Positions 16,545 through 62,414 of a DNA stretch of 64,000 bases are shown here, piece by piece. The stretch comes from Botryllus schlosseri (Eukaryota). The position numbers and the translations under genes are program-made. Location: the NCBI GenBank assembly GCA_051294905.1, contig CM119379.1, positions 4,774,001 through 4,838,000 of the forward strand. Direction: 5' to 3'. Position 1 is the first letter of the stretch. Each line of letters starts with the position of its first letter. Under the pieces are notes generated by a model. That model ran no database searches and was not told the DNA's origin. It saw only the letters and a program-made list of their open reading frames with translations.

Positions 16545-16549
16545 AGTTC

Positions 16550-16921
16550 TTAGTCGAATATATCCTGTTGTTTACGACGACGTTTGGATGAAGTGTTCTT
16601 TGACTTTGTTTTTTTCCTTTTTATAGCTTTTGGGGTTAAAATTTTATCAATCACTCGACCGCCAGCTTGTTTACTTCTCTTGACAACACTAGACTTGATC
16701 GAGTTACCCCGTAATAGATCTCTCGCTATTTCACCTCCAGTTCGTAACAATTGACCACCAGCGTATTTCGCAATAGGTGTCACTAAACGACCGAGTGATT
16801 TAAACAAACTCCCGATACCGGAACCGGCTTGAACTCCACCACTAAAATATCCATAACCATCACCTGTCTGGTTATAATGACGATGGACAGAGTGATGATC
16901 ACACGTGAAAACAACTTTCAT
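16550..16921 (-). CDS. Basic core/pX-pVI-like precursor protein, Pol-B1
   Basis: QAGSGIGSLFKSLGR amphipathic segment; K/R-rich tail ending DIFD; position just upstream of MCP. Confidence 0.7.
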   Translation of the reverse strand: MKVVFTCDHHSVHRHYNQTGDGYGYFSGGVQAGSGIGSLFKSLGRLVTPIAKYAGGQLLRTGGEIARDLLRGNSIKSSVVKRSKQAGGRVIDKILTPKAIKRKKTKSKNTSSKRRRKQQDIFD

Positions 16922-17313
16922 AATCGCTTCCTAATGTTAAATGTAGCTTGCAATGAACGACTTATTATATTTATAGGTTCCCCAAACTCATCCCTGAGGT
17001 AAAGACATACAGAATCTACAACATCTTTTGAAACAGGGAAATAATACGGATTTGTCGCTACCCAATTATGCGTGACAATACCAGGTGTCAGCGGTATAAC
17101 TCGTAATAAACGCGCTAACGTATCTCCAAGTAAGTGAGGGTGAATAATATCGCAATACACAAACAAATATTGACCAATCGCCGGTTCGGTTAAAGTGAAA
17201 TCGATCTCCATGAGGGCTAATTCACAATATCTCGTCGGGATGTTGTTGATGGTGAGTAGTCTGTGCTCAAAATCAGCCCCGAGGATAGAGGTGGTTAACG
17301 TCACTATTTTCAT
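16918..17313 (-). CDS. Penton/minor-capsid-like paralog 3 (short), Pol-B1
   Basis: ELALME...VYCDII.P...GD..ARLLR...PYYFPV...LRDEFG motifs shared with the two adjacent ORFs. Confidence 0.75.
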   Translation of the reverse strand: MKIVTLTTSILGADFEHRLLTINNIPTRYCELALMEIDFTLTEPAIGQYLFVYCDIIHPHLLGDTLARLLRVIPLTPGIVTHNWVATNPYYFPVSKDVVDSVCLYLRDEFGEPINIISRSLQATFNIRKRL

Positions 17314-17981
17314 CGTGCGTGGAGTGTCAATGTGGTCTCTATATCGTGTACTAACTGACCGTATTGGTCCCGGATGGTGATTTTTATATCGCGGACGTGG
17401 TTACTCGACACTGGGAAATAAAACGGTTTTTCATATACAACTTCTTGTCTCATACACGTCTCGTTATTTACTTGGATCACACGAAGCAATTGACTCATGT
17501 AATCACCCACCGGATGATATCGTAGTACATTCATACACACAAAAAGATATCTGAGGTGGGGTTGAGTTGGTTTAGGTTTGATCGATGTGACATTACATAC
17601 TGGTGTCGACACTTGATCAACTACACTGAAATAATTCGTGAATATATCCGTGAGGTGGAGTGTGATACGTTTCGAGTAACGAATTCCGAAAAGTTCATCG
17701 TTGATTCTTTCGGTGAAACAGTGTTTGAAACTTTCAGATAATATTCTTCGCGTCAACTCGAGGTTGTTTGCATAATTCCCAAGTGGTGATAGGTACGCTT
17801 CTACTATTCGATCTTTCTCATTATGTAGCTCCCAGAGTGCTTGATCGCGATTGATTATAATTCGATCAAGAGATTCACTGACAAAACTCATATCCACCAA
17901 CGCAAGCTCATTACAAATAATTTCATTCGGTAACACCACCGAGAATTCGCCTTTGGTGCCAGACAACGTGATGTAACTCAT
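17310..17981 (-). CDS. Penton/minor-capsid-like paralog 2, Pol-B1
   Basis: ELALVD...GDYMSQLLR...KPFYFPV...IRDQYG. Confidence 0.75.
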   Translation of the reverse strand: MSYITLSGTKGEFSVVLPNEIICNELALVDMSFVSESLDRIIINRDQALWELHNEKDRIVEAYLSPLGNYANNLELTRRILSESFKHCFTERINDELFGIRYSKRITLHLTDIFTNYFSVVDQVSTPVCNVTSIKPKPTQPHLRYLFVCMNVLRYHPVGDYMSQLLRVIQVNNETCMRQEVVYEKPFYFPVSSNHVRDIKITIRDQYGQLVHDIETTLTLHAR

Positions 17982-18808
17982 ATTGAATCAACAGCTCTAC
18001 GACGGAAGCGTAGGGTTACTGTCACTGGTGCTTTTCGAAATTTAATAGGGTTGCCAGCTGCGTCACGTAGATAAATTCGTATCGTTCTAAAATTGTTTCT
18101 CGCTAAAGCAAAGAAATATGGTTTTGGGAATATGTTGATTTGGTTTTCATTCGGTTTAGCGGTTACAGTAACCACCCATAAAAGTTGTTGCAGCTTGTTA
18201 CCGTGTGGTCTTGGTTGTATCAGATCACAATACACATAAACCTTATCAATCCGTTCCAACTTTATCGCGGGTGTAAAGATAAATTCTACCACTCCGCGGC
18301 GATGAGATAAAACGCGTCTAAATGTTATTGTATCCAACACAGAACCAAGTGGTATCAATCCGTAAGGTTCGGGTGAATCATGCGTGGTACGGGGTATGTG
18401 TTTGACGCTAGAGTCTGCGGTATCGGTATTTATGGGTACACCCCGCTTGTGTCTTTTTTTACTCGTGACTAATCTTCTGAATGTGATTCTAAAGTCTCCG
18501 AATCCTTGTAAAATGAAAATGTCCCCCATGTAATATTTCTCGTACGATTCTAACATTTCACCGATGCTGTAATACGAGCCTTCGGGAATATAATACCGAT
18601 CGGTGTATCCTTTCGCATCGACAAATCCAAAACCGATACTTTTCGCTGTCACTTCAATTCGCGGTTGAAAATCATTGGGGAAGGTCAGCTCACATAACCC
18701 TAGCTCATGGCGACTCATTTCTAATTCTTTGTAAAGTTCCGTTTGAAAATCTGTGCTAGTATTCAGAAATTTATCCAAACTCGCATTCGAAGGTAGAGTC
18801 AACCACAT
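17978..18808 (-). CDS. Penton/minor capsid protein paralog 1, Pol-B1
   Basis: LTLPSNAS...LGLCELTFP...VYVYCDLIQP...KPYFFAL...LRDAAG; canonical Polinton minor-capsid pattern; likely ATG at 18808. Confidence 0.8.
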   Translation of the reverse strand: MWLTLPSNASLDKFLNTSTDFQTELYKELEMSRHELGLCELTFPNDFQPRIEVTAKSIGFGFVDAKGYTDRYYIPEGSYYSIGEMLESYEKYYMGDIFILQGFGDFRITFRRLVTSKKRHKRGVPINTDTADSSVKHIPRTTHDSPEPYGLIPLGSVLDTITFRRVLSHRRGVVEFIFTPAIKLERIDKVYVYCDLIQPRPHGNKLQQLLWVVTVTAKPNENQINIFPKPYFFALARNNFRTIRIYLRDAAGNPIKFRKAPVTVTLRFRRRAVDSI

Positions 18809-18821
18809 TTTATTGTTTCTT

Positions 18822-19037
18822 TCAACATATACGATGAGGTGATGGATTCGGTAATGAATACCCAAGTGAAGAAGACAGTAGCGTTAAATATATCTCACGA
18901 TCCACCCCGACAGAAATTTGATATAATGAAAACACGATTACACACACTAACATACAAATCTGTACAATAAACACAATCTGGTTTTTCAGACTGTTCGAGA
19001 CTTGACCCATGCGAGATGAGACGGAATCAGAATCCAT
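18822..19037 (-). CDS. Small two-transmembrane protein, Pol-B1
   Basis: Two hydrophobic stretches and LLSSSLGYSLPNP, conserved as LLSSCVGYMLPNP at the same position in Pol-A. Confidence 0.7.
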   Translation of the reverse strand: MDSDSVSSRMGQVSNSLKNQIVFIVQICMLVCVIVFSLYQISVGVDREIYLTLLSSSLGYSLPNPSPHRIC

Positions 19038-19064
19038 AGTTTGGTTGAACAACATTTTCAGAGT

Positions 19065-20135
19065 CTATTTATACAAATCCGAGACCCAAGAATTAAATGT
19101 AGACGGATAACCCAACCATTTTACAAGATATTGCGTTTTCTTTCCTTTCCTGCGAGTAGACAGGATTTTTTCGATATTGTAAATATTATTATTTTTAGTT
19201 ATTGGTTGTAACTCTTCACGCTGAAAGCAACCATCTATAACTTCACCATGGTAGTCTTTCAATTGATAAGTAGGAGGGTCACCTTTACGACATTGAGATA
19301 CGAAAAGGATTTCTTCGGTCCAACTCGCCAAAGCACTTTTTACAAAATTACCACGTGATTTCGAAATCCTGACGGGTGTGCCGATAGTTAGTTTGGGTTT
19401 TTTAGGGGTCATGTCACCGTATAACCTATGGAAAATTTGTTCTTGATTTGAATAATCAACATCCGCTGGAGGACACCCTATAGCCACGTGAAAAGTAGTG
19501 TTATACCCCTGACATATCTCAGACAGGACATTAACATAATTCAAAGTCTTATTATGCGTGAAATACCGGTATAACACTTGCTTCAGAGTACGAATAACAC
19601 GCTCGCATATCGATGCTTTCAGTTCACTATTTGTATGAAAATGTCGCACATTGTTCTCTTTTAAGAAAGTCTGAAACGTACGATTAGTAAACTCGGAACC
19701 TTGATCACTTTGAATAACATGAGGTATACGATCCTAAAATGATTCCTTGAATCCGCGAATAATACCTTGCGAGGTTTTGTTCTTGAGTGGATACAGATAT
19801 AAAAATCGGCTGAAACAATCGATCGTCACCAACACATATTTGAAATTGTCGGTTTCTTTTGAAAGATTTTGCATATGCATGAGATCGGTTTGATACTGAA
19901 CACCGAGACCGGATGTAATCACTCTAGGTCTCTTAAATTTCTTACGATATGGAAAATGTTTCGTGTACGCATCCTTGCTCGAAAGAAACTCCTTGACTTT
20001 GGCTCTATTCCGCCCTCTAGAGAATACGTATGCACCGCGGTAACTACCAGGTAGCCCTGGCGTGAAATACTTAGTATGGCTACCATCCGTATCGGTTCGG
20101 GGTCTTGGGTGTACGACCACTTTTCGTCTTGGCAT
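19065..20135 (-). pseudogene. Retroviral-like DDE integrase with C-terminal chromodomain, Pol-B1 (one in-frame TAG)
   Basis: QTDLM (D), QSDQGSEF (D), CERVIRT (E), YLVKWLGY chromodomain; the two ORF pieces are in the same frame, separated only by TAG at 19736-19734. Confidence 0.93.
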
Positions 20136-20475
20136 GTTGAGTCTTTACTTTGCTTCGTTGGCTACTCGGTGATGGTGAGTGGGGTTTAGGAATCCTTGAT
20201 GGTTCACCCTTGATCAGGCGTCGCAGCGCGTCCAACTCACTAGCCGAAAATAGATTCCTTTGTTCTGATATATCGATTTTCATCGGTTGATTCAGTGTGT
20301 CGTGTTTTGTTTGATAACGATTTAGTGCGTCGTTATATAAGGCTAATTTTCGTTCTTGGGGTATGTTCATCTGTAATATGTCGCTCATACATTTGTCGAT
20401 ATCCAAATTCAATTTCTGAACTTCAACCTCATTGATCGGGTTCGGAGTTATGAAGATTTTTTTGAAAGAAGTCAT
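20080..20475 (-). CDS. Conserved Polinton hypothetical protein (between core precursor and INT), Pol-B1
   Basis: 131 aa, ERKLALYNDAL motif (EKLALYRHGI in Pol-A); near-identical copy at 63403-63798. Confidence 0.7.
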   Translation of the reverse strand: MTSFKKIFITPNPINEVEVQKLNLDIDKCMSDILQMNIPQERKLALYNDALNRYQTKHDTLNQPMKIDISEQRNLFSASELDALRRLIKGEPSRIPKPHSPSPSSQRSKVKTQHAKTKSGRTPKTPNRYGW

Positions 20476-20819
20476 TTTTTGAAAAGATTACCGAGTAAAC
20501 CAGTGACGACGGGTAGGATGCTTGATAATAGAGTCATAAACATACCACCACTCTGGTTAACCATGCGTTTCTTATGTCGAATAGGGATGTCTTTCCTGAC
20601 AAGTCGACGTAAACTACATTTATGAGCTGATAGTCGCTTTCTTTTATACTTTGAAAGAGGGATGTTGCCGTTTAAAATGTTCTATGTACAATCGCATTTA
20701 CACTCGATCAATTCTTTGCTGGCTCCCGATATAATTTGCTTGCGTATCTCGGTTTTACTTTTATGTAGGAACTCTAGTGTGGGTATATGCCGCCGTGTCT
20801 GAGCTGGTACCTTGGTCAT
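20472..20819 (-). pseudogene. Basic core (pVII-like) precursor with in-frame TAG, Pol-B1
   Basis: Manual translation MTKVPAQ...ECKCDCT*NILNGNIPLS...NQSGGMFMTLLSSILPVVTGLLGNLFKK; TAG at 20684-20682; homologous to Pol-A 36545-36952. Confidence 0.75.
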
Positions 20820-20852
20820 TTTGAGTTTAAAGTCGTCTCTGCGCTTGGCTAT

Positions 20853-21464
20853 TTATACCATCGGGCTATAAACCACCATGGTTTCACCAGGAAATATATT
20901 GGTCATAACTCGTCGATTTTCAGGTGCTTCTTGCGTGAGATCAAGGAATAAATAACTATGAGGTTGTCTAGCAGCGTCACGATAAGCCTCTGTTAAAAAT
21001 CTAGAGTTTGGATACATTTGTCGACCAAGAAAACTGATCTGCTGTTGGTCGCGCGGATTCTTGAAAATCACCATATACGAGCTTGAAAGACTCAAGTCAC
21101 GTGCCCCTTTACCCTTGTGGTACAGGTTCTGCGTGATATAGCAAATTGAATTGGCTGAATGATGTGAAAATCTTGTAAAGTAGTCTGCAATTTTCGCGGT
21201 CTCAGTCATGAAATCATCCACTATAATCAAGGTGTCTTCAGAGCAAATCTTCAACTCTTCTAAAATATCTAGACCGGCGTGGAATTCTACGTTATGCATC
21301 GTCTTGAAAACCTCCTGATAATTATTGTAACAATATACGACCCTGGATACACTAGGTTTAATCATTGATGTCGCATGTCTAATCAACTTTGCAACAAAAG
21401 TAGTCTTCCCACTTCTTGAAGGACCACTCACAATACACGCGAATGGGTGGATCAATTCCATCAT
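20853..21464 (-). CDS. FtsK/A32-like genome packaging ATPase, Pol-B1
   Basis: Walker A GPSRSGKT, Walker B LIIVDD, RFSHH, ITQN, VIFKNPRD. Confidence 0.93.
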   Translation of the reverse strand: MMELIHPFACIVSGPSRSGKTTFVAKLIRHATSMIKPSVSRVVYCYNNYQEVFKTMHNVEFHAGLDILEELKICSEDTLIIVDDFMTETAKIADYFTRFSHHSANSICYITQNLYHKGKGARDLSLSSSYMVIFKNPRDQQQISFLGRQMYPNSRFLTEAYRDAARQPHSYLFLDLTQEAPENRRVMTNIFPGETMVVYSPMV

Positions 21465-21498
21465 TTGTTGTTTATTGAAACTCGATAAAGTGCATGTG

Positions 21499-21506
21499 TT
21501 TATATA
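21499..21506 (-). promoter_or_regulatory. Putative TATA box upstream of ATPase/structural block, Pol-B1
   Basis: TATATAAA 35 nt before the ATG; conserved at 62373-62380 in Pol-B2. Confidence 0.55.
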
Positions 21507-21644
21507 TCAACAAGGTTGGGAATATCCACTGTTGTAGTCGTCGTGTTCTAGCGGAATATAAAAACCCAGTAAAGTTCGATTCAACAATTTTCCACGGGTT
21601 ATGAAATCTTCATCTGTTCCTCATCGTCAGGGGAAGTTGTAGTG

Positions 21645-21956
21645 TTACGAACGCTTCAGGTCGTCAAGCAGCTGACCCCAATCTGTAAAATAATAAATCA
21701 CATAAGAGGATTCATAATAAGAGAGGATTCATAGCGCTTTAAAATCTAACAGTGTTACTATACCAAACTATAGACCTTACCACGGATCACAAGTTTTGGT
21801 GGTCTGCTTTTCATCAATCGGGTATCGTCGACGTTGGGAGTTGTTTGGTAGAACCAAGAATCATGAACCGTGGTAATTCTCGCTCCAAGGTAATCATCTC
21901 TACATGTAAAGTGTATAAATCTAATGACATGACAGACTTTAGATAGCGTTATCAAT
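21645..21956 (-). other. Putative spliced exon pair between pPolB and ATPase (exon 21956-21781, 98-nt intron 21780-21683, terminal exon to TAA 21645)
   Basis: TTTTCCAG acceptor, GTAAGG donor, TTTTACAG acceptor; same 98-nt intron and same stop position in Pol-B2 (62099-62196). Confidence 0.55.
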
Positions 21957-22076
21957 CTGGAAAACAAATGATACGTTACCTCACACAAGTAAATCAAACA
22001 TATAAACAAGTAATAAACAAGTAAATCAAACACACAGAATATACAAATAAAATACAATAACACACAAAATATACAA

Positions 22077-25000
22077 TTACACATTTAATGGCAGGGTTGA
22101 CACACCATCCTCGAGCACTCGACGTTTGGCATAGAAATAGGAAAATGTTTTACGCTGTTGTTTGTACGTATAGACACCCCCATCTCTGCACCGAAACCCC
22201 TTGTTCACTCCCCCGACAGATTGCCTAGATGTCAAGAAACCCAGAAAAGTTTCGAAATCGACTGGGTTGGATTTCTGGAGACCTTTGGAAGCCAATTTTT
22301 TCTTTGGACCATCACAAAAGTAATTTTTGGATTGGAGACCACAGAAAGATGTACCACCTTCATACTCCACTTTCATCTAACCCGGTTGACGAAGGTAATA
22401 CGCGTACGTGTCTTTGCAACACTGCCTCGAGCGATCAAAAGAAACCGGGTCAACCAAAAACTCAGTTCGGTGCTCATCACAAAAATAGCGTGGAAACCAG
22501 TTCTCATATTCAAGATAAAATTCATCCCATTTCTCGGGGATAAGAATATCATCGAATGAGGCTGAATGCGAGAGATAGAGGGAGTCTGTGTCCATCATTA
22601 ATAGCATGAAGCACTCGTCACGGAAATATTTACACAAGCAGTCATAAAAAAACGACAACATCTTGAGCTTAGCATTGTTATACACCCAGAATCCTACTTG
22701 AATACAGTTACCACACTTGATCGTTTTAGGTCGCTTCGTTATTTCAAATAGATCAGCGTTCAATTCGTCACATTTCACAAAAAAACGATCCTTCACGTTG
22801 GTGCCTAATTCGCTTTTATCACAGTAGGAGGTTCGTTTGAATTTACGCGGGTTCATCAAGACGCGGCCATAGCTGCTGTTTCCGGCTAATTTTTGTGTCA
22901 GGGCAATGATCTCTAGGCTAGGGTCGCGGTCCCCAGCTCGTCGACAGTCTGAGACATTTTTCGCAAAGTTGTCAAAACAGGTCTTTTTTGTGAATTCGAC
23001 CGCCTCATGAATTTTGGATATAACCAACCCGTGCTCTACATACCACTTGATCAAGTCAGAGGTCAACAAGATTTTCTTGCCCCAGTATGAAGCAACTAAC
23101 ATGCGCGTGGGTTTGGTGAGTAATTTACGATCAATGGCAAACTGTTTCATGTGACCTGTCAAATGCTCGCGAGACACCATCGTATTTTTGAATATCGGAC
23201 ATAGTTCAACAAACTTCCTTTGTAAATGTTTTGGCGTAAAAATATCAACTGATAAACATCCGAAGAATGTATCGGTCATTACCATCTCCATCAATTTTTG
23301 TGCGGTGACAGACTTGGCTCGAGTCAATTGTGGTTGAATACCATTAAGATATCGCACAATATCAGGATTATCCTGTTTCTCCGTGTGCCAGTCGCATTCC
23401 CATTTACATATGACTTGGTAATTGAGGCTTTTGTAATAATCATGAACACGTTTAGTCCGTTCTCGACGTTCCAAATCATCACAGCCAAATCTGCACTGAT
23501 GTGCATGGAAATGACATCCAAGAAAAGACAAGATTACCCCTTGACCAGCTGAATTACGATAGAACCCATCAGCCGGATAATTACGAGCTCCTACACGGAT
23601 TTCAGGTCCATTAAAAGCATGGTGGACATGTACATTGTGGGTATACGAATACCAGTTTAGCCATTGAGCTGCTGTCTCCCCCCATTTCGGCGCGGTCTTC
23701 ACCGGTTTGAATTTAGTACACTCAGCATCAAGTGGTTGCCAATGTACCGGGAAACCAGTTGGACTAGGTTCACTCAAAGCAAAAAGGTATAACGAATTGC
23801 TGTCCAGCCCTGTTACATGTTGGGTAATCTGAGCGTTTTCCTTATAAAAAAATTCTTTGATTCGAGTTTCACCCTGTTTTTGATATCGATGGAAAATGAC
23901 TGACGGTCCACCCACTAAATTATCTCTGAATAGCGAAACCAGATCCTGGTGTTTATCATTGAACAAGGTGAAATCACGTGGAATGCTATTGAAAAGATGC
24001 CTCGATACAACCCCGGGTAGGGAGACGGCTTCTTTGAATATATCCACACTGAATTGACTTTTGAAAGATTGAAATTGTTTTTTTAACCCCTCAATGAAGT
24101 AATGAGTATCGATTGCGTTGTATCATTTGAGATAATCACGTAAAGTGGTCATTTTGTTATCGTTCCAAACCTTCAGACAGTTTTCATATTCAGCTGTGGA
24201 TATATTACGACCTTTTAGCGAGCTGTAAAACTCATCGTGGCTAGGTAGACTCGTATAATCCAGCTTTTCCAAACTAGTCAGAAACTCATACAGAAAATGA
24301 CCTTTAGCGGCGCTACATTTGAAGGCTTTCAAATAAGCATCGTACGAGAACCCGGGTGCCAAGTAATTTACAATGTCCAAAAATTTGAGTCTGTTGGTTG
24401 TCAACGAGAGGAAGTTGTTACCGCGCTTCAATACACTCAGATTTTCATCAACGAGTAAACCCATCAAGTACTCTTTGAGACAGTTCAAGTCATACCGACC
24501 ACCATTGAACGACAAAACAGGGATTTGTTTTAAATATCGCATAAACTCCTCTTGTAAACGTTCAAGAGGTATTTTTTTCTCGGAAGGATCGAGTGCTTTC
24601 ATTTCGGTAATTTTAGTTTCGAGCATGTCCAAGTAGTGTTGATTTTCCGTCTGTAACAACCTAAATGACTCACTTTGAATATCATGAAAATGATCAACCA
24701 TTTCCGCACACAAGTCGTTTGGGTCACCGTTCGAGACAATTACATACGGTTCCAAGAACCCTTCCACATTAGAAGATATGCTAACAGAAATGGGAATATG
24801 TTTGCACTCCCATGAAGTTTTGGAGGAATCTGGAATATCACACTTCTCAAACATACTCTCGATATCAAACGCGATACGGTATTTGAAATAACGAAGCTGA
24901 TGAGGAACAAACACCCCTTCTAGATCAAGTTTTTCAAATATGTTCAGAGGAGGTGTATACACGCCGCCGGGAAACACTTCAACAGGTTCCGTTGTACATT

Positions 25001-25670
25001 TGTGTCTGGTCAATTCATACTGCTCATAAAAAAATCTTTGACAAACATCACATCGATAGCTCTCTGCATAACGGTTCACGTTAGTAATGAGACAGAAATG
25101 GTTGCTTTCTAAATGTAAGTACACAGGTTTCGCTTCAAATGTACTACGACGGAGTGCGACAGCTTTACCCTCAGTTTTTGTGTACACAAATATGGCCACA
25201 TTAAACAAGTCCTCGATATCGTCCAGCATATCAAGAGTTACACCAGATTCTACATTGATACCATATACCGAAGTGAATTGTTGGGCCATTGCTTTTGTAT
25301 CTTTTCCTAGCGAGTGACCAATACAGCGGAAAGCACAGAGATTGTCTCTGTACCGATTTCGATTTGTTTGATGGGTAAATGTCATTATACATCTCGCTCT
25401 CGCAAGCCACGTCGGTAGTTTAATACCAACACAACCAATCAACACACCCTCGGTAGGATATTCATATATCTGCGGGTTGATCAGACAGGTCGATTGGGTA
25501 TTTTGGAAAACATCCGACCGCTTACGATTGCTGACGCTAGTATTGCGCACGTGGTTACTGTTCACTACATACGATTTCACCGCTTGCCAGTTCTGAGATG
25601 TAATTTGCTGCTTTTGGTTGTCGATCTCTGGCGGTGCGTGTTCTTCATGATTCCAAAGGTGTCGAGTCAT
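22077..25670 (-). pseudogene. Protein-primed DNA polymerase B (pPolB), Pol-B1; two in-frame stops
   Basis: FDIESM, SFNGGRYD, GLDSNSLY, KLAGNSSYG, MDTDS; vOTU-like DNLCAF...H, Zn finger and VSR-like insert. Stops TGA 24125-24123 (TGG in Pol-B2) and TAG 22379-22377; all three pieces share one frame. Confidence 0.95.
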
Positions 25671-26028
25671 CTGTAAAATTGATACCGCGTGGCTACATTC
25701 AACACTTGGGAATATTAAACTAGTGTTACTTACAATGGGGTTTCTTTTTCGGTATCTTCCTTGGATCTTTATACTAAACAAGTAACACGTCAAACTATGT
25801 CGCTAACATAGTAATATAACAGATAACTCACCAGTAGACTTGTGTACCCCACTTAATCATTGAGTTCGCTTTGTCTGTTCAACAACAAAATCATTACATC
25901 ATGCTCAATAGTTCTACACAGCAATAACTCACCGTTTCAATTCTTTAATCCCACGGTTGTTTTGTCTGGTGGATAAATAAATAACAAATTATATTCATAA
26001 ATCAAAGTATTCGCACCGAATAACTTAC
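25671..26028 (-). other. Four-intron/micro-exon cassette upstream of pPolB, Pol-B1
   Basis: GT-AG introns 26028-25966 (63), 25932-25875 (58), 25831-25774 (58), 25733-25671 (63); exons 33/43/40 nt; ends CAG|ATG. Confidence 0.75.
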
Positions 26029-26335
26029 CTATTAAACCCTTAATCCCTGTGTCAATGTAATCTCTATATGTAAACTATATAAATCTAATGACATAACCGA
26101 CTTGAGATATGAATTAATGTTATCCACCTGGAAAACAAATGATACATTAACACACAATACAAAAAAAAAATCATATTAAACAAACATAATGTACAATTAA
26201 ACCCCAATAACGCCACACACACAATATATACAAGTACATCTCAATAAAATTCAATGACAGGATTATTTTCTTGGGTCGCTATGAAAATGATTGAGATCAT
26301 GAAAAGACACATCGGCATCGTATTTCGATATCAGC

Positions 26336-27043
26336 TCAACCAATCAACAAACCGTCAGTGGGGTATACGTAAAACTGTACATTAGCCAGACAGACTGCCC
26401 TGTATTTTGTATCTGGTCGAGAGTCTTGTAACACATCTAGTGCCGTTTCCAACCTTATAGATTCAACAAATTCATCGAATTCAGCTAGTGATGTAATCGC
26501 TGCTGGGACTTCTAATACGCTATCGATGTTCGCCGACGCATGAAAATACCGAAATCTCCCAGCCGCGACGTTATGTAAAATGATTCCATACGCAAAATTC
26601 ACTTTGAAACGAGTCGACTCTGAGAAAAATATCGCTTGGATATCGCGGAAAACATCCGGTATCTCACGATCGATGACTCGGATATTATACACGCGCCGAC
26701 TCTGATTCACTACATATGATTTTATCGCTTGCCAGTTCTGGGATACAACTTCTTGGTATTGGTCGCCTGTCTCTGGTGGTGTGTCTTCTTCCTCGCGAAC
26801 ACGACTCCGTCTGCGTCGACTCACAGACTTCAGCCCCACCTGACGCGCTATATCTGCGTGGTTTGGTTGCATTTCGATCGTTGTCGTAGAGTTGCGTTCT
26901 GTGGCTTCAACTCTTAAATCAGGCGTCATAGGATCACCAGAATTAATCGCATCAAAGATATCCGCATTCTCTTCAAATTGCGATTCAAATGCATTTGGTT
27001 CATAACCAAATTTATCAAGATTATCTATCTGAGCCTCGGCCAT
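26336..27043 (-). CDS. Stand-alone terminal-protein-like ORF (paralog of pPolB N-terminal domain), Pol-B1
   Basis: SQNWQAIKSYVVN...FKVNFAYGIILHN...YFH...RPDTKY...LLIG matches the Pol-A pPolB N-terminus (FKVNYAYGFLLYN...YFH...RPDTKF...LLGC). Confidence 0.8.
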   Translation of the reverse strand: MAEAQIDNLDKFGYEPNAFESQFEENADIFDAINSGDPMTPDLRVEATERNSTTTIEMQPNHADIARQVGLKSVSRRRRSRVREEEDTPPETGDQYQEVVSQNWQAIKSYVVNQSRRVYNIRVIDREIPDVFRDIQAIFFSESTRFKVNFAYGIILHNVAAGRFRYFHASANIDSVLEVPAAITSLAEFDEFVESIRLETALDVLQDSRPDTKYRAVCLANVQFYVYPTDGLLIG

Positions 27044-27124
27044 TGTACAATAATTAATCTAACTGCTCCAACCAACGTTTATGTCTGCGACAGTGAAGTA
27101 TAACAATCTGATCGTGGTGTTGGC

Positions 27125-27132
27125 TATTTATA
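27125..27132 (-). promoter_or_regulatory. Putative TATA box for the TP-like gene, Pol-B1
   Basis: TATAAATA about 80 nt upstream of ATG 27043, in the divergent intergenic region. Confidence 0.45.
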
Positions 27133-27504
27133 GATTTAATTCGATAGTAGCACGCGGTTGGATGGAAAATAATTCGGCGCGCAGGCCATTCGATATATAG
27201 ACCGCCCGAATACTGCGTAATCCCCAGAACCGATCGCGTTTCCGACTTTCAGAACCGGACGTATTTAGTGTGTCACAGATCAAAACGCGGCCGCAGATAT
27301 CTGATTTTTCAAAATCGCACAGCGCACTGCGCTTTAGTGAATTTCCTGTTTAGCGAAACGGGCGATTTTATTGTGTCACACATGTCATACGCACCCGCCA
27401 ACATCTGTTTTTTCGAAATCTGAGTGGTGTATTTCACCATTTTAACACATTGTGGTGTCATTCTCATGGTTTACTTTTTCAGTTGATAGTTACATATACT
27501 CGTT

Positions 27505-51912: not shown

Positions 51913-52237
51913 GCTGATATCGAAATACCGCCAGGACTTGCACAATCAAGATGTGTCACACCGTGTCTTTTCATGATCTCAATCACTTTCATAGTGACCC
52001 AAGAAAATAATCCTGTCATTGAATTTTATTGAGATGTACTTGTATATATTGTGTGTGGTGTTATTGGGATTTATTTGTACATTTTGATTGTTTAATATGA
52101 TTTTTGTATTGTTTGTTAATGTATCATTTGTTTTCCAGGTGGATAACATTATTTCATATCTCAAGTCGGTTATGTCATTAGATCTAAATAGTTTACATAT
52201 GGAGATTACATTGACGCCGGGATTAAGGGTTTAATGA

Positions 52238-52616
52238 GTAAGTTATTCGGTACGAGTACTTTGATTTATGAATATAATTTGTTATTTGTTTATCCTACAG
52301 ACAAAACAAACATCGAAATTTAAACAAAGAATTGCAGAGGTGAGTTATTACTGTTCAGAACTAGCGAGTGTGATGTAATGATTTTTTTTTGTTTGTTGTT
52401 GAACAGACGGAGCGAACTCGAGGTTCGAGTTGGATACACAAGTCTACTGGTAAGTTATCTGTTATAACACAATTCAGCGGATATAGTTTGATGTGTTGGT
52501 TGTTTATTAAGCATAAAGAATCAAGGAAGACGCCGAAAAAAGAAAATAGATTGTAAGTAAGGCTAGTTTGATGCTCCCTATGTGCTGAATTTGACCGCGT
52601 GTTATCAATTTTACAG
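52238..52616 (+). other. Four-intron/micro-exon cassette upstream of pPolB, Pol-B2
   Basis: Introns 52238-52300 (63), 52340-52406 (67), 52450-52511 (62), 52553-52616 (64); exons 39/43/41 nt; CAG|ATG at 52617. Confidence 0.72.
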
Positions 52617-55600
52617 ATGAGTCGACGCCTGTGGAATCACGAGGATGAGAATGTGCTGTCAGAGATCGACAACCAACAGCAACAAATTACATCTCAGAAC
52701 TGGCAAGCGGTGAAATCGTATGTAGTAAACAGTAGCCACGAACACAATACTATCGTCATCAATCGTAAGCGGTCGGATGTTTTCCATGATACACAATCGG
52801 TCTGTCTGATCAACCCGCAGTTATATGTATATCCTACCGATGGCGTGTTGATTGGTTGTGGTGGTATTAAACTACCGACATGGCTTACAAAATCGAAATG
52901 TATCATGACATTTACACGTCGAAAAAATGGTACGAGACTCAAGGTCAATCTGTGTGCTTTTCGCTGTATAGGTCACTCGATAGGTAAAGACACCAAAGCA
53001 ATGGCCCAACAATTCACTTCAGCATATGGTGTAAATGTAGAATCTGGTGTGACTCTTGACATGTTGGACGATATTGAGGATTTGTTTAATGTCGCCATCT
53101 TCGTGTACACCAAAACCGAGGGTAAAGCTAGCGCTCTCCGACGTAGTACGTTTGAAGGGAAACCTGTGTACTTACATTTAGAAAATCGACATTTCTGTTT
53201 AATTACTGATATGAGGCGATATATGGAGAGCTATCGATGTGATGTTTGTCAAAGATTTTTTAATTTACAGTACGAATTGACCAGACACAAATGCGCAACG
53301 GGTCCTGTTGAAGTGTTTCCGGGTGACGTTTATAGCGCTCCTCTGAATATTTTTGAAAAACTCGATCTAGAAGGGGTGTTTGTTCCTAACCAGCTTCGTT
53401 ATTTCAAATACCGTATCGCGTTCGACATAGAGAGCATGTTTGAGAAGTGTGATATTCCAGATTCCTTCAAAACTTCATGGGAGTGCAAACATATTCCCGT
53501 TTCTGTTAGTATCTCTTCTAATGTGGAAGGGTTCTTGGAACCGTATGTAATTGTCTCGAACGGCGACCCAAACGACTTGTGTGCGGAAATGGTTGATCAT
53601 TTTCATGATATTCAAAGTGAGTCATTCAGGTTGTTACAGATGGAATATCAACACTACTTGGACATGCTCGAATGAAATGAAAACGCGCGATCCCGCCGAT
53701 AGAAAAATACCTCTCGAACGTTTGCAAGAGGAGTTTATGCGCTATTTAAAACAAATCCCTGTTGTGTCGTTCAATGGCGGTCGGTATGACATGAACTGTC
53801 TCAAAGAGTACTTGATCGGTTTACTCGTTGATGAAAATCTGAATGTATTGAAACGAGGTAACAACTTCCTCTCTTTGACAACCAAAAGACTAAAATTTTT
53901 GGATATTGTGAATTTTTCGGCACCTGGTTTCTCGTACGATGCTTATTTGAAAGCCTTCAAATGTAGCGCCGCTAAAGGTCATTTTCCGTATGAGTTTCTG
54001 ACTAGCTTAAAAAAGTTGGATTATCCGAGTCTACCCAGCCACAGCGACTTTTACAGCTCGCTAAAAGGTCGTAATATATCCACAACTGAATATGAAAACT
54101 GTTTGAAGGTTTGGAATGATAACAAAATGTCCACTTTACGTGATTATCTCAAATGGTACAACGCAATCGATACTCATTACTTCATTGAGGGGTTAGAAAA
54201 ACAATTCCAATCTTTCAAAAGTCGATTCAGTGTGGATATATTCAAAGAAGCTGTCTCCCTACCCGGGGTTGTATCGAGGCATCTTTTCAATAGCATTCCG
54301 CGTGATTTCACCTTGTTCAATGATAAACACCAGGATCTGGTTTCGCTATTCAGAGACAATTTAGTGGGTGGGCCGTCGGTCATTTTCCATCGATATCAAA
54401 AACAGGGTGAAACTCGAATCAAAGAATTTTTTTATAAGGAAAACGCTCAGATTACCCAACATGTAACAGGGTTGGACAGCAATTCGTTATACCTTTTTGC
54501 CTTGAGTGAACCTAGTCCAACTGGTTTCCCGGTACATTGGCAACCACTCGATGCTGAGTGTACAAAATTCAAATCTGTCAAGACCGCGCCGAAATGGGGG
54601 GAGACGGCAGCTCAATGGCTAAACAGGTATTCGTATATTAATAATATACATGTCCACCATGCTTTTAATGGACCTGAAATCCGCGTAGGAGCCCGTAATT
54701 ATCCTGCTGATGGGTTTTATCGTAATTCCGCTGGTCAAGGGGTAATCTTGTCTTTTCTTGGGTGCTATTTTCATGCACATTTGTGCAGATTTGGCTGTGA
54801 TGATTTGGAACGTCGAGAACGGACTAAACGTGTTCATGATTATTACAAAAGCCTCAATTACCAAGTCATATGTAAATGGGAATGCGCTGGCGCACAGAGA
54901 AGCAGGAAAACCCTGATATTGTGCGATATCTTAACGGAATTCAACCACAATTGACTCGAACCAAGTCTGTCACCGCGCATAAATTGATGGAGATGTAATG
55001 ACCGGTACTTTCTTTGAATGTTTATCAGTCGATATTTTTACGCCAACGCATTTGCAAAGGAAGTTTGTTGAACTATGTCCGATATTCAAAAATACGATGG
55101 TGTCTCGCGAACATTTGACAGGTCACATGAAACAGTTCGCCATTGATCATAAATTACTCACCAAACCCACGCGCATGTTGGTTGCTTCATACTGGGGTAA
55201 AAAAAATCTTGTTGACCTCTGACTTGACCAAGTGGTATGTAGAGCACGGGTTGATTATATCCAAAATTCATGAGGCTGTCGAATTCACAAAAAAGACCTG
55301 TTTTGGCAACTTTGCGAAAAATGTCTCAGGCTGTCGACGAGCTGGGGACCGCGACCCTAACCTGGAGATTATTGCCCTGACACAAAAATTAGCCGGAAAT
55401 AGTAGCTATGGCCGCGTCTTAATGAACCCGCGTAAATTCAAACGTACCTCCTACTGCGATAAAAGTGAATTGGGCGCCAACGTGAAGGATCGTTTTTTCG
55501 TGAAACATGACGAATTGCACGCTGATCTATTTGAAATAACGAAGCGACTTAAAACGATCAAGTGGGGTAACTGTATTCAAGTAGGATTCTGGGTTCATAA

Positions 55601-56201
55601 CAATGCTAAGCTCAAGATGTTGTCCTTTTTTTATGACTGCTTGTGTAAATATTTCCGTGACGAGTGCTTCATGCTATTAATGATGGACACAGACTCCCTC
55701 TATCTCTCGCACTCAGCCTCATTCGACGATATTCTTATCCCCGAGAAAAGAGATGAATTTTATCTTGAATACGAGAACTGGTTTCCACGCTATTTTTGCG
55801 ATGAGCACCGAACTGAGTTTTTGACTGATCCGGTTTCTTTTGACCGATCATGACAGTGTTGCAAAGACACGTATGCGTATTACCTTCGTCAACCGGGTTT
55901 CATGAAAGTGGAGTCCGAAGGTGGTACATCTTTCTGTGGTCTCCAATCCAAAAATTACTTTTGCGATGGACCAAAGAAAAAATTAGCTTCCAAAGGCCTC
56001 CAGAAAGCCAATCAAATCGATTTCAAAACTTTTCTGGGTGTCTTGACATCTAAGGAAGCTAAGGGGGGAGTGAACAAAGGGTTTCGGTGTAGAGATGGGG
56101 GTGTCTATACGTACAAACAACAGCGTAAAACATTTTCCTATTTCTATGCCAAACGCCGAGTGCTCGAGGATGGTGTGTCAACCCTACCATTAAATGTGTA
56201 A
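52617..56201 (+). pseudogene. pPolB, Pol-B2 (about 4 frameshifts plus a CGA>TGA)
   Basis: Five ORF pieces collinear with the Pol-B1 pPolB; breaks near 53673, 54887, 54996, 55200 and TGA at 55851. Confidence 0.95.
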
Positions 56202-56547
56202 TTGGATATTTTGTGTGTTATTGCATTTTATTTGTATATTCTGTATGTTTGATTTTATTTTGATTTATTACTTGTTTATATGTTTGATTTACTTGTGTGT
56301 GGTAACGTGTCATTTGTTTGCCAGATGGATAACACTATTTCATATCTAAAGTCTGTCATGTCAATAGATTTACATAGTTTACATATAGATGATTACATTG
56401 GAGCCAGTGATGAGCGGAGTCTGCTTTTCGAGACTCCGAGTCCCTCCGACAACTTTGGTCTCTGAGGCAAAGTCCCTCCGACTCCGGGGATCTCAATCCC
56501 AGACTCCGAGATAACCCGAAGAATCTTGTCCAGTCCCCGAAATATAT

Positions 56548-57196
56548 TCAGACCATTGTCGAAGAATCCCAATCGATGTTTTCGATAGCCTGTCTGATAT
56601 TCATACCAGTTTTTTTAATATCCGTGAATTGCCGAACAGTCGCAACATTACTTCTGAGAGTCAAGTTCTCTCCAACAAAATGGACAGTCAAGCTAATGGA
56701 ACTGCGACCCTTTAGATCGGTCCACATATCTGTGGTGATGCCAGCCAGCCCATAACACTTGATAGCAACTCTTAGTTCCTCTGACAGCTTCTGCTTCAAA
56801 GATGAAGCCTCCTCATCGAACTTACGTTACACCGTAAATCTGGATGGCAAAACGTCTTCTGCACAACACCACGGCAAACCGGCACTTCTTCGGTATTCTC
56901 CAGAATCTCAACCCGGCGATCAGTGTTCCCCATGATCACCTTCTCCTTTAATTACTAGCTTACTTGCATTTCAACTGCGATCAATTCTTCTTACAAGCTT
57001 CGATATGTCTTCGAAGATGCGACGTACCACTTGTCAACTTGTGATGCTTTAGCTGAACATTGCAATTTTGACATCTCGCAAACCCAGTATACTGGCCGTT
57101 ATTATCATGCAGCATCAGAGTTAAATCCTTCCACACGTCACTCTTTTTCTGCGTCTTAGTGAGTAACCCACTTGACGTCGACGGTGCTTCAGCCAT
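56548..57196 (-). pseudogene. hAT transposase remnant (BED finger plus first catalytic region)
   Basis: SDVWKD...ARCQNC...GTSHLRRH (BED); LPSRFTV; TTDMWTD...SLTVHFV (first catalytic Asp); C-terminal half missing. Confidence 0.88.
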
Positions 57197-58035
57197 TATA
57201 TTAAAACGACGAAGGAAGACCAGTCAGTTCGAACTAACTACCACTAACACCACTGAAATCGACGATCACATCACAGGTTTCAGTAAATTAAGTTCCGCAT
57301 CGCCATGAAACAGTTGATGGAACTGCACTGCACTAAACATACATGATGCATCACTGACACACCGATCGACGCTCCTTGAAGTTGACTAAATGACTAGTGA
57401 CTTCCAATTTTAAAGCTGCTACATGATATCTGGAATTTGGAGTCTGAGACAGACCAGCAGCAGAAACTTGATTGCGGTGCTGATTTTTCATATCACATCA
57501 AAGTCATTTCTCAATCAAACCAAACATTACATGACGAAAATTCAGAAGAATTCTGGATGACTGACTACGTCAATCAATATTGAAGGAAGCGTAGTTGAGT
57601 TGATGCGAGCAGAGCAAAGCAGACGGTTGTAGTTATTTAGTGTGGCTGTTCAGAAATTCGGAATATCCTGTTTTTACAGGGTAAGATCAGCTTACCTTAG
57701 TGATTTATGTATTGTTGAAATCTTTAAAGTGGGCTTAGATGCTGGTATGCCTCTGTGAGCGGATCTTACTAGCGAAAATTCGTCGCAATGTCATTAAATC
57801 ATGTAACACATTGCATAAGTTATTATTGTTTCCATCCAGATACTTGCTTGTTGTATGTATATTTCTCACAGATATAAAGGTAATATTGATGTAACACTTA
57901 TTATCGATATCTCTCACTGCAAATTGCAAGTACGATGAAAGTTGCGAAAAGTTATCACAAAAGTGGTATCGGATATTATCTTGTTTCAACTGATACCAAC
58001 GTTGGGAATACATTTTCACAAAATGGACCTATTAC

Positions 58036-61000
58036 CAGGGTTGTAATGACTCGAGTCATGACTCGACTCGAGTCAGACTCGAGTTACGATTTTTTTGTGA
58101 CTCGACTTGACTCGAGTCATTTTCTTGAAATGGGAAAATGACTCGACTCGACTCGAGTCAATATTTGGATTGACTCGACTTGTACTCGAGTCATTACGCA
58201 TGACTCGACTCAAGTCATTGACTCGGCTTATTTTATGTGACTTGAAAATGAAGAAAGTTGCGAATCACAATGGTTAGATCAACGCATGTGACGAATTCTG
58301 TCGACATCGCTATTTTTCACCACTGCTTTCGTTGCACTCGTCTGATATCAGATATGCGCCGCCGTAAAAACAAAAGACAATGGTAGCCTACATAGTAGCA
58401 AAGAGCAATGCATTGTACAAAATCATCCAGTGATGAAGAGGTAATAGATCCTCCGCGATCAAAGTACTCAAGACATTTCAATTATATAAGCAAACAATCG
58501 AAGCAAAGTTCAATTATAGCCAAAGAAATGACTCAGATGGTCAAGTAGCCTACTTGGAAGAGACTGCATGATAAGCTCATGTGTAGATATGAAGGCGATG
58601 ATTCTTTGCATTTTTGGCCGACTAGAATGGATGAGTATCTAATGCTCTTCAGTGTGGTTCAAAATTGCTTTTCAATTCCTGCATCTAATGCACCAGAGGA
58701 ACATGTATCCAGTGGATGTGGATTATTCTAAGGCCATGCCGCCTCAACATATATGAGAATCTCCTTTCCACTTTAGTATTTTTCAAGTGTCACTCATTGA
58801 TTTGATCTGCTGTCTGTGAAAACACACAATACCCTCCGTCCGTTTGACGTTTTGTTCGGTATGTGCATTGTGCACGTGATAATAATGAGTGGCTAATGTT
58901 GTGTGATATTTGTACAATAGGGCCGATCAAAAATACCTTCTTTTTTATTCTACTGGGTGGCTACTAGGGATGGTGTGAACGTGAGGTTCACGTTCGCGTT
59001 CTGTGTGTGAACCTCGGAAATTTAGAGGTTCGCGTTCACAACAGAACCTTGGTAGGTTCTGCACTGTGAACCCTTTTCAAATATTACAATTTTCACTTCA
59101 TTACAACATCGTTGGTTCAAATTTATTGCATTTCAACTGCAGAACACTCTATGCATGGCGATATAGGCATAAAAAAATCAACACTAAACGAGCATGTACC
59201 TTAACAATCTCAAAAGTTTTACTTGCTTTGTTGCAAAAGTTTGCTCGAAATATCCAACTTTCCGTTTGTAAATATTTATTGACCCTCTGCTGCGAGCTTG
59301 ACCCACAATCACAAAATATCACGATCGATATAAGCTACGTAGTCAGCGAATGATGCTTATTCAACTAATCAATCTAGCAGGAGTATGGGGTCAATCTTGA
59401 CTTCATATGTTTACTGGATCATTAAGACCAAATCGGTGCGATTGAGGTGTTGGCTACTGCTGTATAACTTGTTAATGGGGTAATATTGGTAACAAGTATA
59501 GAAACCCGTTTCACACTCTGCTCAATATCAATGTAGCAATACTCAGACGCCGAATACATTTTCCGATCTGTCATACGAAAAATGTGACTCGAGTCTGACT
59601 TGAGTCAAGTCATCTCAATACTGCTACAAGGCTATATCTGCATCTTCCTTGCCCGACGGCATATGCACATCATGTACTCATGGTATGCATATACGCAGAT
59701 CGTGTTATGTATATCATCAGTCGGTGTATATGCCGCAAGAACATCAAGGACAAAAATACGTCCCTTCCTTCCCTTTTATTCCCTGGTAAGTCTGCGTCAA
59801 AATTGTTGGCAAAGCGACGGAAGATATTCATTTTATGAGATTATTATATAATTTGATTGCCCCAGTTGATACATCTGGCGACGTTTAAAACGTCAATATG
59901 CATTTCAGCCTTGTGACGTAATGTTGCCCGAGTCGTCGCAAGGTATCGTGCACGTTAATATAGGCTATCATTTCATTGAAGGATAGGTTGGAATTAGCAA
60001 TATGACGTCCCGTGACGTCATGAGGTTCACGTTCGTGTTCACACAGAATCTTTCAAAAAGGTTCGCGTTCACACGAACCTGAACCTTTTAGAGGTTCACA
60101 CCATCCCTAGTGGCTACTTCATAAAATCGCTACGTTGCATAAAAAGAACACTAAATCTGGCCTAATTTGAAAAAGTGGAATCAATGAAATGAGAGGAGAA
60201 AATTTTGGATTTGAAAATACATGGAGTATTTTTAGTGAGAAATGATTTCATAAAATATAATTACATATTAGCAGTAAGTCGACTATTTTTTCATATCCAA
60301 AATATCCCACTCTAATAACTCCGCTTCGTCTAGTTTGAATTGAGCCAAATTTTCTATGAATCATATTTTTACACAATCTAACAATATCATGAGGTAGCCG
60401 GTACATTTCGAAAGTCTCTATTTGTAATTAATCCAAAATATTTTCTCTTAGCATTGCTTTCTACTGGTTGGAATTAAGCCAAATTTAAGTTCTTTTAGAT
60501 AATCTAACAATTTTAAGAAGTAGCCTCTTTTTTGACATTTTTTCCTCATTTTGAGATTCTTTTGGTAAATGTAGGGCAAATTCGACTAAGACAACAGTAA
60601 ATCAGCACTAAAGTAACGCTCCGGCGACTATTTCGGCAGCTGAGCAGGAAAGTTGACCTTATTTCTGGCCAACCACCTAATATGATGTGAAAGAAAAACT
60701 GTACCTCTACATAAGCGTTTATCTGTTGATTCTTTACCAGCTTGTATCTAGCTAGACGTGACTTCGTAGGTCCTCTATCAGATAGTATGTAGACGTGAAT
60801 TCGTTAATTATCTATCAGCTATTTGTGAGCGGTCGTCGATGTGCTCGTAATAAAAACTGAATGCTTTTATTTGTGATATATCAGACTGACAAGACGGATA
60901 TTTGATTTAAAGTTCTAAGATTAGTAACGTTATCGTATTGGCGGCCTGTCTCGTCTATCTGTAGCATCGGTATATGAGGCCTGGAACTGTCTGTTATCTG

Positions 61001-61298
61001 CCTAACTAAATAAACTTGTGCCAAGACTATGATAGGGATAAATAAGCATGTTTGGCAAGCAAGGAATTCGATATCACCCAAGCAGGATTGAAAACATAAG
61101 TTGAACATGACTTCAATACTGTGACTTGGACTCGACTCGAGTCATAACACTATGACTCGGACTTGGCCCTTAAAACGGTGACTTGGACTGGGACTCGATT
61201 CAATATTGAATTGAAAATGACTCGACTCGACTCGAGTCAAAACCACAAAAGTCAGATTGACTCGTGACTCGGAACCATGTGACTTGGTTACAACCCTG
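58036..61298. mobile_element. Non-autonomous hAT element with GACTCGAGTC arrays, nested in 56405-61990
   Basis: TIR CAGGGTTGTAA / TTACAACCCTG; perfect 8-bp TSD CCTATTAC (58028-58035, 61299-61306). Confidence 0.92.
58965..60109. mobile_element. Non-autonomous hAT element nested in 58036-61298
   Basis: TIR TAGGGATGGTGTGAAC / GTTCACACCATCCCTA; perfect 8-bp TSD GTGGCTAC (58957-58964, 60110-60117). Confidence 0.93.
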
Positions 61299-62414
61299 CC
61301 TATTACTATATTGAATGTCATCAGGATAATGGGATATATTCCGTTATGATCATCAACTTGCTGGAAGAATCAGGTTAGCCAAAGGCTGTACCATAGGGAA
61401 GCCCCGCTGTATGTTGCTGATTGTAAATGTTTCGCACAATTACTGGGGTAGCATGAAAATTAGTCACGAAACAAATACGCAAGGAGGAATATGATGTGAC
61501 TATAGAAGACTGCAATGACAGCAACGTGGAAGATTCTGGAGATCTTATCTCATAATATGGTGACATTCAGCAGTGGATTCAAAGACTGCATCTCATTGCA
61601 GGGAAAAATGATGCGCTGCGAACGATATTGGGTGTCTTCAAGTTTGTGAACTACAGACACTGCTCAGCGGAAATGCCTTGCTAGATCACTAGGTTACTCT
61701 CCAGTCCCCAATTGCCGTGCAGATGACTGATTTTTATGCACTTGTCAATCATTTTTGCATGTTACCGGTCATATTACAACTTTACAAGGTGTCAACTGTC
61801 TGTGTTTTGGTTTGTAATCAATAGTGTCTTCTGGTCAAAGCTATCGAAAGATATCGCGGGCAAAACTAACAATACTCCGTAAAACTCCGGAAAAATATCT
61901 GTTGTAAACTCCGACTCCACTCCGGGTATCACAAAATTGGCAAAACTCCGCTCCGACTCCACTCCGACTCCGCTCCGGTGCTCATCACTGATTGGAGCAG
62001 GAATTACCACAGTTCATGATTCTCGACTCTACCAACAACTCACAACACCGACGATACCTGATTGATACAAAGCAGACAACTAGAACTTGTGCTCCATGGT
62101 GCGGTCTAAAGTTTTGTATAGAAACACTGTTAGCTTTTAAAGCGCTATTAATCCTCTCGTATTATGAATCCTCTCATGTGATTTATTATTTTGTAGATTG
62201 GGATCAGCTGCTTGACGATCTGAATCGTTTGTAACACTACAACTTCGACTGACGACGAGGGACAGATGAAGATTTCATAACCCATGGAAAATTGCTAAAT
62301 CGAACTCTACTGGGCTTATATATTCCACTAGAACAAGATGACTACAACAGTGGATATTCCCAACCTTGTTGATATATAAACACATGCACTTTATCGAGTT
62401 TCAATAAACAACAA

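Follow-up and report, generated by a model that had tools for sequence, protein, structure and literature searches.

In a family of Maverick/Polinton elements from Botryllus schlosseri, two small genes between pPolB and the ATPase gene, here called Y and Z, have been fused by deletion into a dead unit whose splice acceptor survives. On the sequence evidence, the acceptor is likely kept in the dead fusion as the boundary of a trans-spliced operon, since trans-splicing at this point would mark the end of the message upstream; the account as a whole is probable rather than secure. The element at its centre, B1, occupies positions 14154 to 29403 (minus strand) of the window, the 64,000-nucleotide stretch that was analysed, and is delimited by terminal inverted repeats of ~640 nt with AGTAGT...ACTACT ends and a 6-bp target duplication.

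Read along the minus strand, the relevant arm of B1 begins with a stand-alone TP gene of 235 codons (26336..27043), which consists of the N-terminus of a further gene, X, and a 162-codon TP domain. It is followed by a relic of the 3' tail of a dead-polymerase, short-tail pPolB lineage (26230..26335), by a copy of a T/G-rich tract with a Y-type acceptor (26128..26229), and by a 99-nt hybrid exon that joins the decayed 5' end of Y, without its ATG, to the end of the first leader exon (26029..26127). A leader with four short GT-AG introns and three micro-exons (25671..26028) then runs up to the AG|ATG of pPolB, whose frame (22077..25670) lacks the TP core and is interrupted in this copy by in-frame stops. 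Behind the pPolB stop stands another T/G-rich tract with a Y-type acceptor (21957..22076), without an AATAAA or a close donor, leading into the decayed 5' part of Y (21813..21956), where the start codon is gone and the frame broken. The Y-to-Z deletion junction (21782..21812), a gap between two BLAST matches, marks the absence of the remaining Y and of almost all of Z exon 1, and is followed by the 98-nt Z intron (21683..21780) and by a shortened allele of the last Z exon (21507..21682) with an early stop at 21645. Finally, a TATA box and an AATAAA lie between Z and the ATPase gene (21471..21506), both being present in 50/50 copies that reach this point; the segment is likely the end of the left transcription unit together with the promoter of the next.

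The inverted sister of B1, B2, carries on the plus strand the post-TP acceptor (exon from 52139), a second leader, pPolB and the post-pPolB acceptor (exon from 56325) in 52136..56404. Its chimeric exon is interrupted by the 5.6-kb remnant of a hAT-type transposon (56405..61990), recognizable by terminal inverted repeats, an 8-bp target duplication and transposase-like fragments, and resumes in 61991..62400, which also holds the Z intron, with a donor reading GTGCGG, and the shortened last exon. The products of B1 include pPolB and an rve integrase (PF03175 and PF00665 hits) as well as an ATPase, relatives of which carry PF04665. Candidate frames for a double jelly-roll capsid protein and an Ulp1-like protease, presumptive labels that go by resemblance, stand at the expected places without a Pfam hit. 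Three tandem frames at 16918-18883 (minus strand), in the position of the minor capsid, look related to one another by eye. An OB-fold-like frame, also identified by eye and without a Pfam hit, adjoins the terminal repeat and diverges from the pPolB unit (28001-28630, plus strand, and 49692-50315, minus strand), and possibly encodes a single-strand DNA-binding protein. B1 sits within a tandem repeat array with a period of ~400-630 nt (13398-14151 and 29404-31280). The window also holds a second, unrelated Maverick (31413-43525), whose TP and pPolB form a single frameshifted gene; it has no gap the size of Y and Z ahead of its ATPase and carries a BIR-domain gene (PF00653; 42391-43026, plus strand). 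A further feature is a 4.6-kb element with 475-nt inverted arms (4104-8745) whose repeats resemble Maverick terminal repeats and which is possibly a non-autonomous Maverick derivative.

The segment 21645..22076 of B1 had been read as a small spliced gene, with an ancestral product of about 70 residues and an acceptor block duplicated downstream of TP. The block itself is as described: the T/G-rich tract, the TTTGTTT(T/G)CCAG acceptor and the homologous exon start are present at all four places, with exons starting at 26127 and 21956 on the minus strand and at 52139 and 56325 on the plus strand. The family was sampled through 39 long loci around scored matches (41 rows; 40 of 147 candidates were scored), which with B1 gave an analysable set of 40 sequences; the criterion for choosing these and the loci added below was either resemblance to B1 or an open last exon, and all counts are to be read as counts of this sample rather than as population frequencies. 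The splice dinucleotides are intact in all 38 of these sequences that could be analysed, with donors reading GTAAGG in 20 and GTGAGG in 18 and acceptors CAG in 36 and TAG in two, a variation that obeys the consensus GTRAG and YAG. An intron of 98 nt is common to B1 (21780-21683) and B2 (62099-62196), as predicted, but its length is not fixed in the family (89-98 nt), and in whole Z genes it ranges from 80 to 102 nt. B1 and B2 likewise end at the same codon, but the stop at 21645 is the early stop of a shortened allele: the last exon measures 176 nt in 22 of 35 copies and 185 nt in seven, and the 185-nt form, 9 nt longer, is open to just before the TATA box of the ATPase gene.

The ~70-residue product does not exist as a gene. 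None of the 38 copies encodes it, the longest frame from the exon start being 55 codons, and the exon shows no conservation at the codon level, with ratios of 0.98 in the start frame and 0.96 in the 'DDYIG' frame of the original prediction (30 loci). For the initial 100 codons of the ATPase the same test gives 0.11-0.26; further along this gene no codon signal is seen, probably due to a frame shift of the reference row there. A ratio of 0.41 (p 0.004) was obtained 3' of the predicted stop, as one among many frames tested. The 'DDYIG' frame was rejected, with protein scores against Y of 19-34 vs 103 for the start frame of the 183-nt exon allele; the other frames, and comparisons with Z exon 1, score 15-34, the value for 21813..21956 against Z exon 1 being 24. 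Since the start frame aligns with Y and the 3' part is Z, the predicted peptide mixes two genes and two frames: the ~70-residue ancestral gene is false, and 21645..22076 of B1 is real as DNA only.

The genes themselves are found in sister copies. A search with a natural open last exon returned 125 match rows, 62 of which cover at least 58 of 60 residues free of stops, and 60 further loci were picked from this match list, 58 of them orientable. Most hold ~750 nt more than B1 between pPolB and the intron, and this extra sequence contains Y and Z, each beginning at AG|ATG behind a T-rich tract. Y is a single exon, of 164-182 codons in 41 of the 49 loci where its start was located. Z consists of two exons separated by a conserved phase-1 intron; exon 1 measures 187 nt and ends in phase 1 in 39 of 42 loci, a recognizable last-exon acceptor is present in 54 loci, and the spliced frame has 123 or 124 codons in 37/42. 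The same structure is seen in a second subfamily whose pPolB is ~70% identical. Y, Z exon 1, Z exon 2 and the ATPase have pN/pS values of 0.37, 0.21, 0.10 and 0.04, respectively, when copies of the main subfamily are compared, and of 0.35, 0.59, 0.13 and 0.25 in comparisons between subfamilies; both Y and Z are under purifying selection. The left arm of a whole copy thus reads promoter, gene X, acceptor, micro-exon leader and AG|ATG of TP-pPolB, followed by tract, AG|ATG of Y, tract, AG|ATG of Z exon 1, intron and Z exon 2, and lastly AATAAA/TATA and ATPase.

The start of Y resembles Z exon 1, and Y from residue 64 on resembles Z exon 2 in the same order, which makes the two genes likely old paralogs; hhalign supports the pairing with E values of 6e-5 and 2.5e-4, at probabilities of only 65 and 43%. 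Both appear to be orphans in the collections searched. No homologue of the last Z exon was found among 50%-identity representatives, and searches with Y, against protein-database entries of similar length and against metagenome contigs, were likewise negative; Y, Z and X matched no Pfam family above the cut-off, an Atlas search gave nothing at 0.9 or above, and a search with the ATPase detected no related viral contig. The predicted model of Y, mostly helical, is weak (pLDDT 59) and had no PDB match at E <= 0.001.

Against these whole copies, the unit in B1 is very probably a decayed deletion chimera, in which the start of Y is joined to the Z intron and a truncated last exon. Positions 22076-21813 match the pPolB-Y spacer and the start of Y (first ~260 nt) at 67-72%, with 72% DNA identity to whole Y in 21813..21956, and from the donor on, 21781-21500 match Z at ~90%; B2 behaves likewise. 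Y and Z were joined close to the point at which the two paralogs correspond. The idea that the unit represents a single pre-duplication ancestor of Y and Z was rejected on the strength of these matches, the 5' part being much nearer to Y and the 3' part having 90% identity to Z. The pN/pS is 0.81 within chimeras vs 0.28 within whole Y; measured against whole Y it is 0.45-0.55 for the chimeric exon and 0.29 for the post-TP block, values which indicate that part of the divergence predates the loss of coding by Y. The deletion took most of Y and Z in one defective lineage, most copies of which also have replaced catalytic motifs in pPolB; B1 and B2 would be mosaics of an active-type polymerase gene and a defective Y/Z region. 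In one further locus (L053, L025), the OB-like gene abuts the short pPolB tail and the acceptor block as the result of an internal deletion, and in another (L051) the 5' region of pPolB is missing as well; L051 and L053 both retain the acceptor.

The second acceptor, behind TP, is explained by a duplication. TP is encoded apart from the polymerase in 19 sampled elements, B1 and B2 included, and 17 of the 19 carry the chimera (all sampled sequences). Among the first 39 loci, 15 have a fused TP-pPolB with one acceptor block, 14 a separate TP with two blocks and eight a TP-less polymerase only, while two are without polymerase. The fused gene is the form of the outgroup subfamily (13/13 outgroup copies with Y and Z) and of most copies with whole Y and Z. 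In split elements, the sequence directly 3' of the TP stop matches a degenerate short-tail pPolB tail (score 122, maximum of 39 after shuffling), and the polymerase downstream is without ~80 residues of TP core. Directly compared with the long pPolB tail, the relic does not reach significance (35.5, shuffled maximum 46), so that its homology runs via the short-tail lineage. A 3-nt deletion relative to whole Y (0/36) is shared by 13/15 post-TP blocks and 34/44 chimeras, and the post-TP and post-pPolB blocks form sister groups with support of 100/99, in a tree of 99 columns whose bootstrap was unsettled and in which identical rows had been merged within groups. The pPolB-tail relic after TP and the sister acceptor block indicate that duplication explains the TP split, and the grouping of post-TP blocks with chimeras places this event within the defective lineage. 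The original prediction of a tandem duplication behind the fission of TP is therefore upheld as regards the duplication and the reciprocal loss, but its unit of leader cassette, frame and acceptor exon gives way to one composed of TP-pPolB, tail, acceptor and the opening ~85 nt of Y, with the first leader donor attached. By duplication or recombination in head-to-tail order, an internally deleted TP-pPolB would have come to stand before the leader and a TP-less polymerase, and the acceptor carried along would now separate the TP and polymerase cistrons. The stand-alone TP frames are open in 12 of the 14 tested, with a pN/pS of ~0.29.

The acceptor has outlasted the coding sequence that it precedes. 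In blocks located by their exon and not by the acceptor (one further whole Y was not anchorable), the acceptor AG is present in 44/44 chimeras, 19/19 post-TP blocks and 39/39 whole Y genes, and the start codon has been lost from 9/44, 19/19 and 0/39, respectively. Identity among four lineages, each represented by up to 12 copies, is 0.95-0.99 at positions -15 to -1 and is also raised at positions +1 to +15 (0.78-0.93), while in windows more than 15 nt from the acceptor it is 0.54-0.84. Among 29 unique short-tail chimeras, 14 of 15 acceptor columns are invariant vs 127 of 273 elsewhere (p 2.7e-4, from alignment columns that are not independent).

This acceptor lacks the usual partner of a cis-spliced site. 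A GTRAG donor lies 20-125 nt upstream in 1/104 Y-type and 0/46 Z acceptors, and in the same range in 86/91 and 87/89 cis acceptors; behind gene X, 27 of 53 acceptors have one. No A(A/T)TAAA occurs within 40 nt of Y-type or Z acceptors, and AATAAA with a TATA box precedes the ATPase in 50/50 copies. The Y-type and Z boundaries, with a lone acceptor before the downstream gene, short spacing and no AATAAA, resemble those of Ciona-type spliced-leader (SL) operons in these points. According to the available text on SL-resolved operons of Ciona (Satou et al., 2006, PMC1488885; Satou et al., 2008, PMC2760879), these share with the present elements same-strand genes ~50-150 nt apart, a lone acceptor before the downstream gene and no AATAAA at the boundary. 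In the part of the report consulted (PMC1488885), Ciona operons have their upstream poly(A) site at the trans-splice acceptor itself, 16 of 18 being without AATAAA. A G+T-rich sequence 5' of the acceptor is a further shared feature, although the enrichment described in the relevant section of Yokomori et al. (2016, PMC4691747) lies at the start of outrons and not at the acceptor. Unlike the Ciona operons covered in these sources, the operon-like unit would belong to an endogenous virus, and its boundary survives before dead genes.

By analogy, spliced-leader trans-splicing by the host at the Y-type acceptor would cleave a polycistronic transcript and so create the 3' end of the pPolB or TP message lying upstream; after TP, the acceptor would also start the polymerase mRNA by way of the hybrid exon and the four-intron leader. 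Two GH6 matches above the cut-off are present in the host genome, GH6 being a mark of the tunicate cellulose synthase. A search of this genome for the Ciona leader exon and donor returned two single mismatched places only and no gene array, and the leader sequence of other ascidians was not found in the literature.

The original prediction had proposed that the leader may splice alternatively to TP, pPolB or the small gene. In its present form, a multi-exon viral leader would be joined in cis to one or another of the acceptors of TP, pPolB, Y and Z, as in adenoviruses, giving mRNAs that are 3'-coterminal at the AATAAA after Z. Splice sites of the pPolB leader are retained in 70-77 of 77 unique copies (the last site by construction), and one leader exon occurs in all three length classes modulo 3, the leader being likely non-coding on this pattern. 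This conservation, the start of every frame at AG|ATG and the single AATAAA after Z in 50/50 copies speak for such a scheme, with which orphan acceptors are also compatible; furthermore, adenovirus E2B pTP and polymerase are made by alternative splicing, as stated in the portion of PMC9499273 seen. However, 14/19 split elements, B1 included, have the beginning of gene X attached to TP and a single leader, located 3' of TP, and five, B2 among them, have two leaders. The leader would in addition have to skip a conserved proximal acceptor over ~4 kb, and the scheme offers no reason for keeping an acceptor before a dead frame. We therefore regard it as unlikely, and a Ciona-type trans-spliced operon boundary would fit better than an adenovirus-like shared leader. 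With respect to the leader region itself, gene X (L044:4312-5190, L071:2793-3677) encodes ~293-295 residues upstream of the leader, with a low-complexity middle, a helical C-terminus and no Pfam family. Its first ~73 codons are fused to TP in B1-type elements (27043-26824, minus strand), while in B2-type elements gene X is absent and the first exon, led by a TATA box, extends directly to the first leader donor (50809-51064, plus strand). The leader of the divergent subfamily (L071:3740-4190), too diverged for BLASTN, has three introns by eye vs four in the B family.

A second alternative, to which we give an equally low probability, holds that the acceptor of the dead unit is now without function and owes its likeness to recombination or short gene conversion with whole copies at the shared block. 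Short conversion could homogenize an acceptor, a point that weighs against the boundary account; moreover, the family is strongly mosaic, with tail type, fused or split TP and whole or chimeric Y/Z occurring in many combinations, and 12 chimeras have a long-type tail. In 32 short-tail chimeras, however, the sequence on either side belongs to the defective lineage, and the match to whole Y is limited to the acceptor (0.99, vs 0.60-0.68 more than 15 nt away), which would confine conversion tracts to ~15-30 nt in many lineages. Less probable still is that the chimera works, or recently worked, as an in-register Y/Z fusion or as a truncated Y of ~49 residues acting as dominant-negative or decoy: the junction near the homologous point, the ATG with 49 open codons in the commonest allele and the Z donor and acceptor intact in 38/38 are offset by the absence of a codon signal among copies (0.98; 0.81), the loss of the start codon in 9/44, common frameshifts and 0/38 copies reaching the last exon in frame.

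In the short-tail lineage, 9/9 copies picked for long open frames (a choice that may bias pN/pS downward) have substitutions of acidic catalytic residues in exonuclease motif I and in polymerase motifs A and C, and lack the C-terminal ~80 residues, but retain the Cys and His of the vOTU. The pN/pS of this pPolB is 0.22-0.29 against the active type and 0.20-0.26 among five fused short-tail copies, and the exonuclease change is found in 27 of 34 short-tail chimeric loci, five being unreadable and two different. By its pattern of substitution, the short-tail lineage carries a maintained pseudo-polymerase. More than 30 sampled short-tail copies (e.g. L044, L047, L054, L057, L060) combine a pN/pS of ~0.24 with an intact vOTU dyad. 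In the TP-less active-type frames, too, Cys and His of the vOTU are retained (10/10). Searches of the open literature, judged by titles and abstracts, turned up nothing on Maverick trans-splicing or on a dead pPolB lineage that is maintained.

Tentatively, these observations can be combined into one reading, in which the transition from a polinton to an adenovirus-like gene layout may be caught in progress in the B family. Its four parts, doubtful when taken jointly, are that a dead yet selectively maintained TP-vOTU-pPolB lineage would serve as primer donor; that a TP-less lineage would retain the active polymerase; that the joining of both would yield the stand-alone TP gene; and that the host trans-splice acceptor would act as a portable cistron boundary, making the fission expressible at once. 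Such portability would be the reason why the acceptor outlives the gene it opened.

A comparable arrangement is known from a polinton of the coral Stylophora (Krupovic et al., 2024, PMC11161782), in which, according to the sections available, TP is a gene of its own beside a pPolB that starts with the vOTU region, and the vOTU Cys and His are retained as in the B family. The same sections describe one such coral polinton and propose the split as a step on the way to adenoviruses. In contrast to the coral polinton and to adenoviruses as presented there, fused, split, TP-less and dead-polymerase forms share one genome in B. schlosseri, and the relic after TP reveals the duplication route; also, the vOTU is inactivated in adenoviruses, while the B family keeps the dyad. 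With the adenovirus E2 unit, for which E2B splicing and the tripartite leader are described in the part of PMC9499273 consulted, the B family appears to share a multi-exon non-coding leader and the separate encoding of TP and polymerase. Unlike the adenovirus leader as described in that part, the only leader of 14/19 split elements is positioned where TP is unreachable, the adenovirus arrangement being possible in five.

Vertebrate Mavericks (Barreat and Katzourakis, 2021, PMC8097293) are, in the extracts available, like B1 in their terminal inverted repeats, 6-bp target duplication and (AGT)2...(ACT)2 ends, and in encoding pPolB, ATPase, integrase and small conserved genes of unknown function. 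The same extracts report no introns in intact elements and a pm gene between atp and pz; this lack of introns is a description given there and not a formal Polinton/Maverick criterion. The B family differs from the vertebrate elements so described in having two paralogous orphan genes between pPolB and ATPase, a conserved phase-1 intron in Z and an intron-rich pPolB leader. The accessible text of a preprint (bioRxiv 10.1101/2023.08.22.554363) contains nothing on spliceosomal introns.

The analysis thus replaces a false gene by two real orphan genes, of which one has an intron, in elements that have been described as intronless. The relic after TP and the dead-polymerase lineage would render the proposed polinton-to-adenovirus split of TP testable with intermediates from one genome. 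Finally, an acceptor that appears to be under selection before a dead frame may offer tunicate operon biology a natural experiment on whether trans-splicing itself makes the upstream 3' end.
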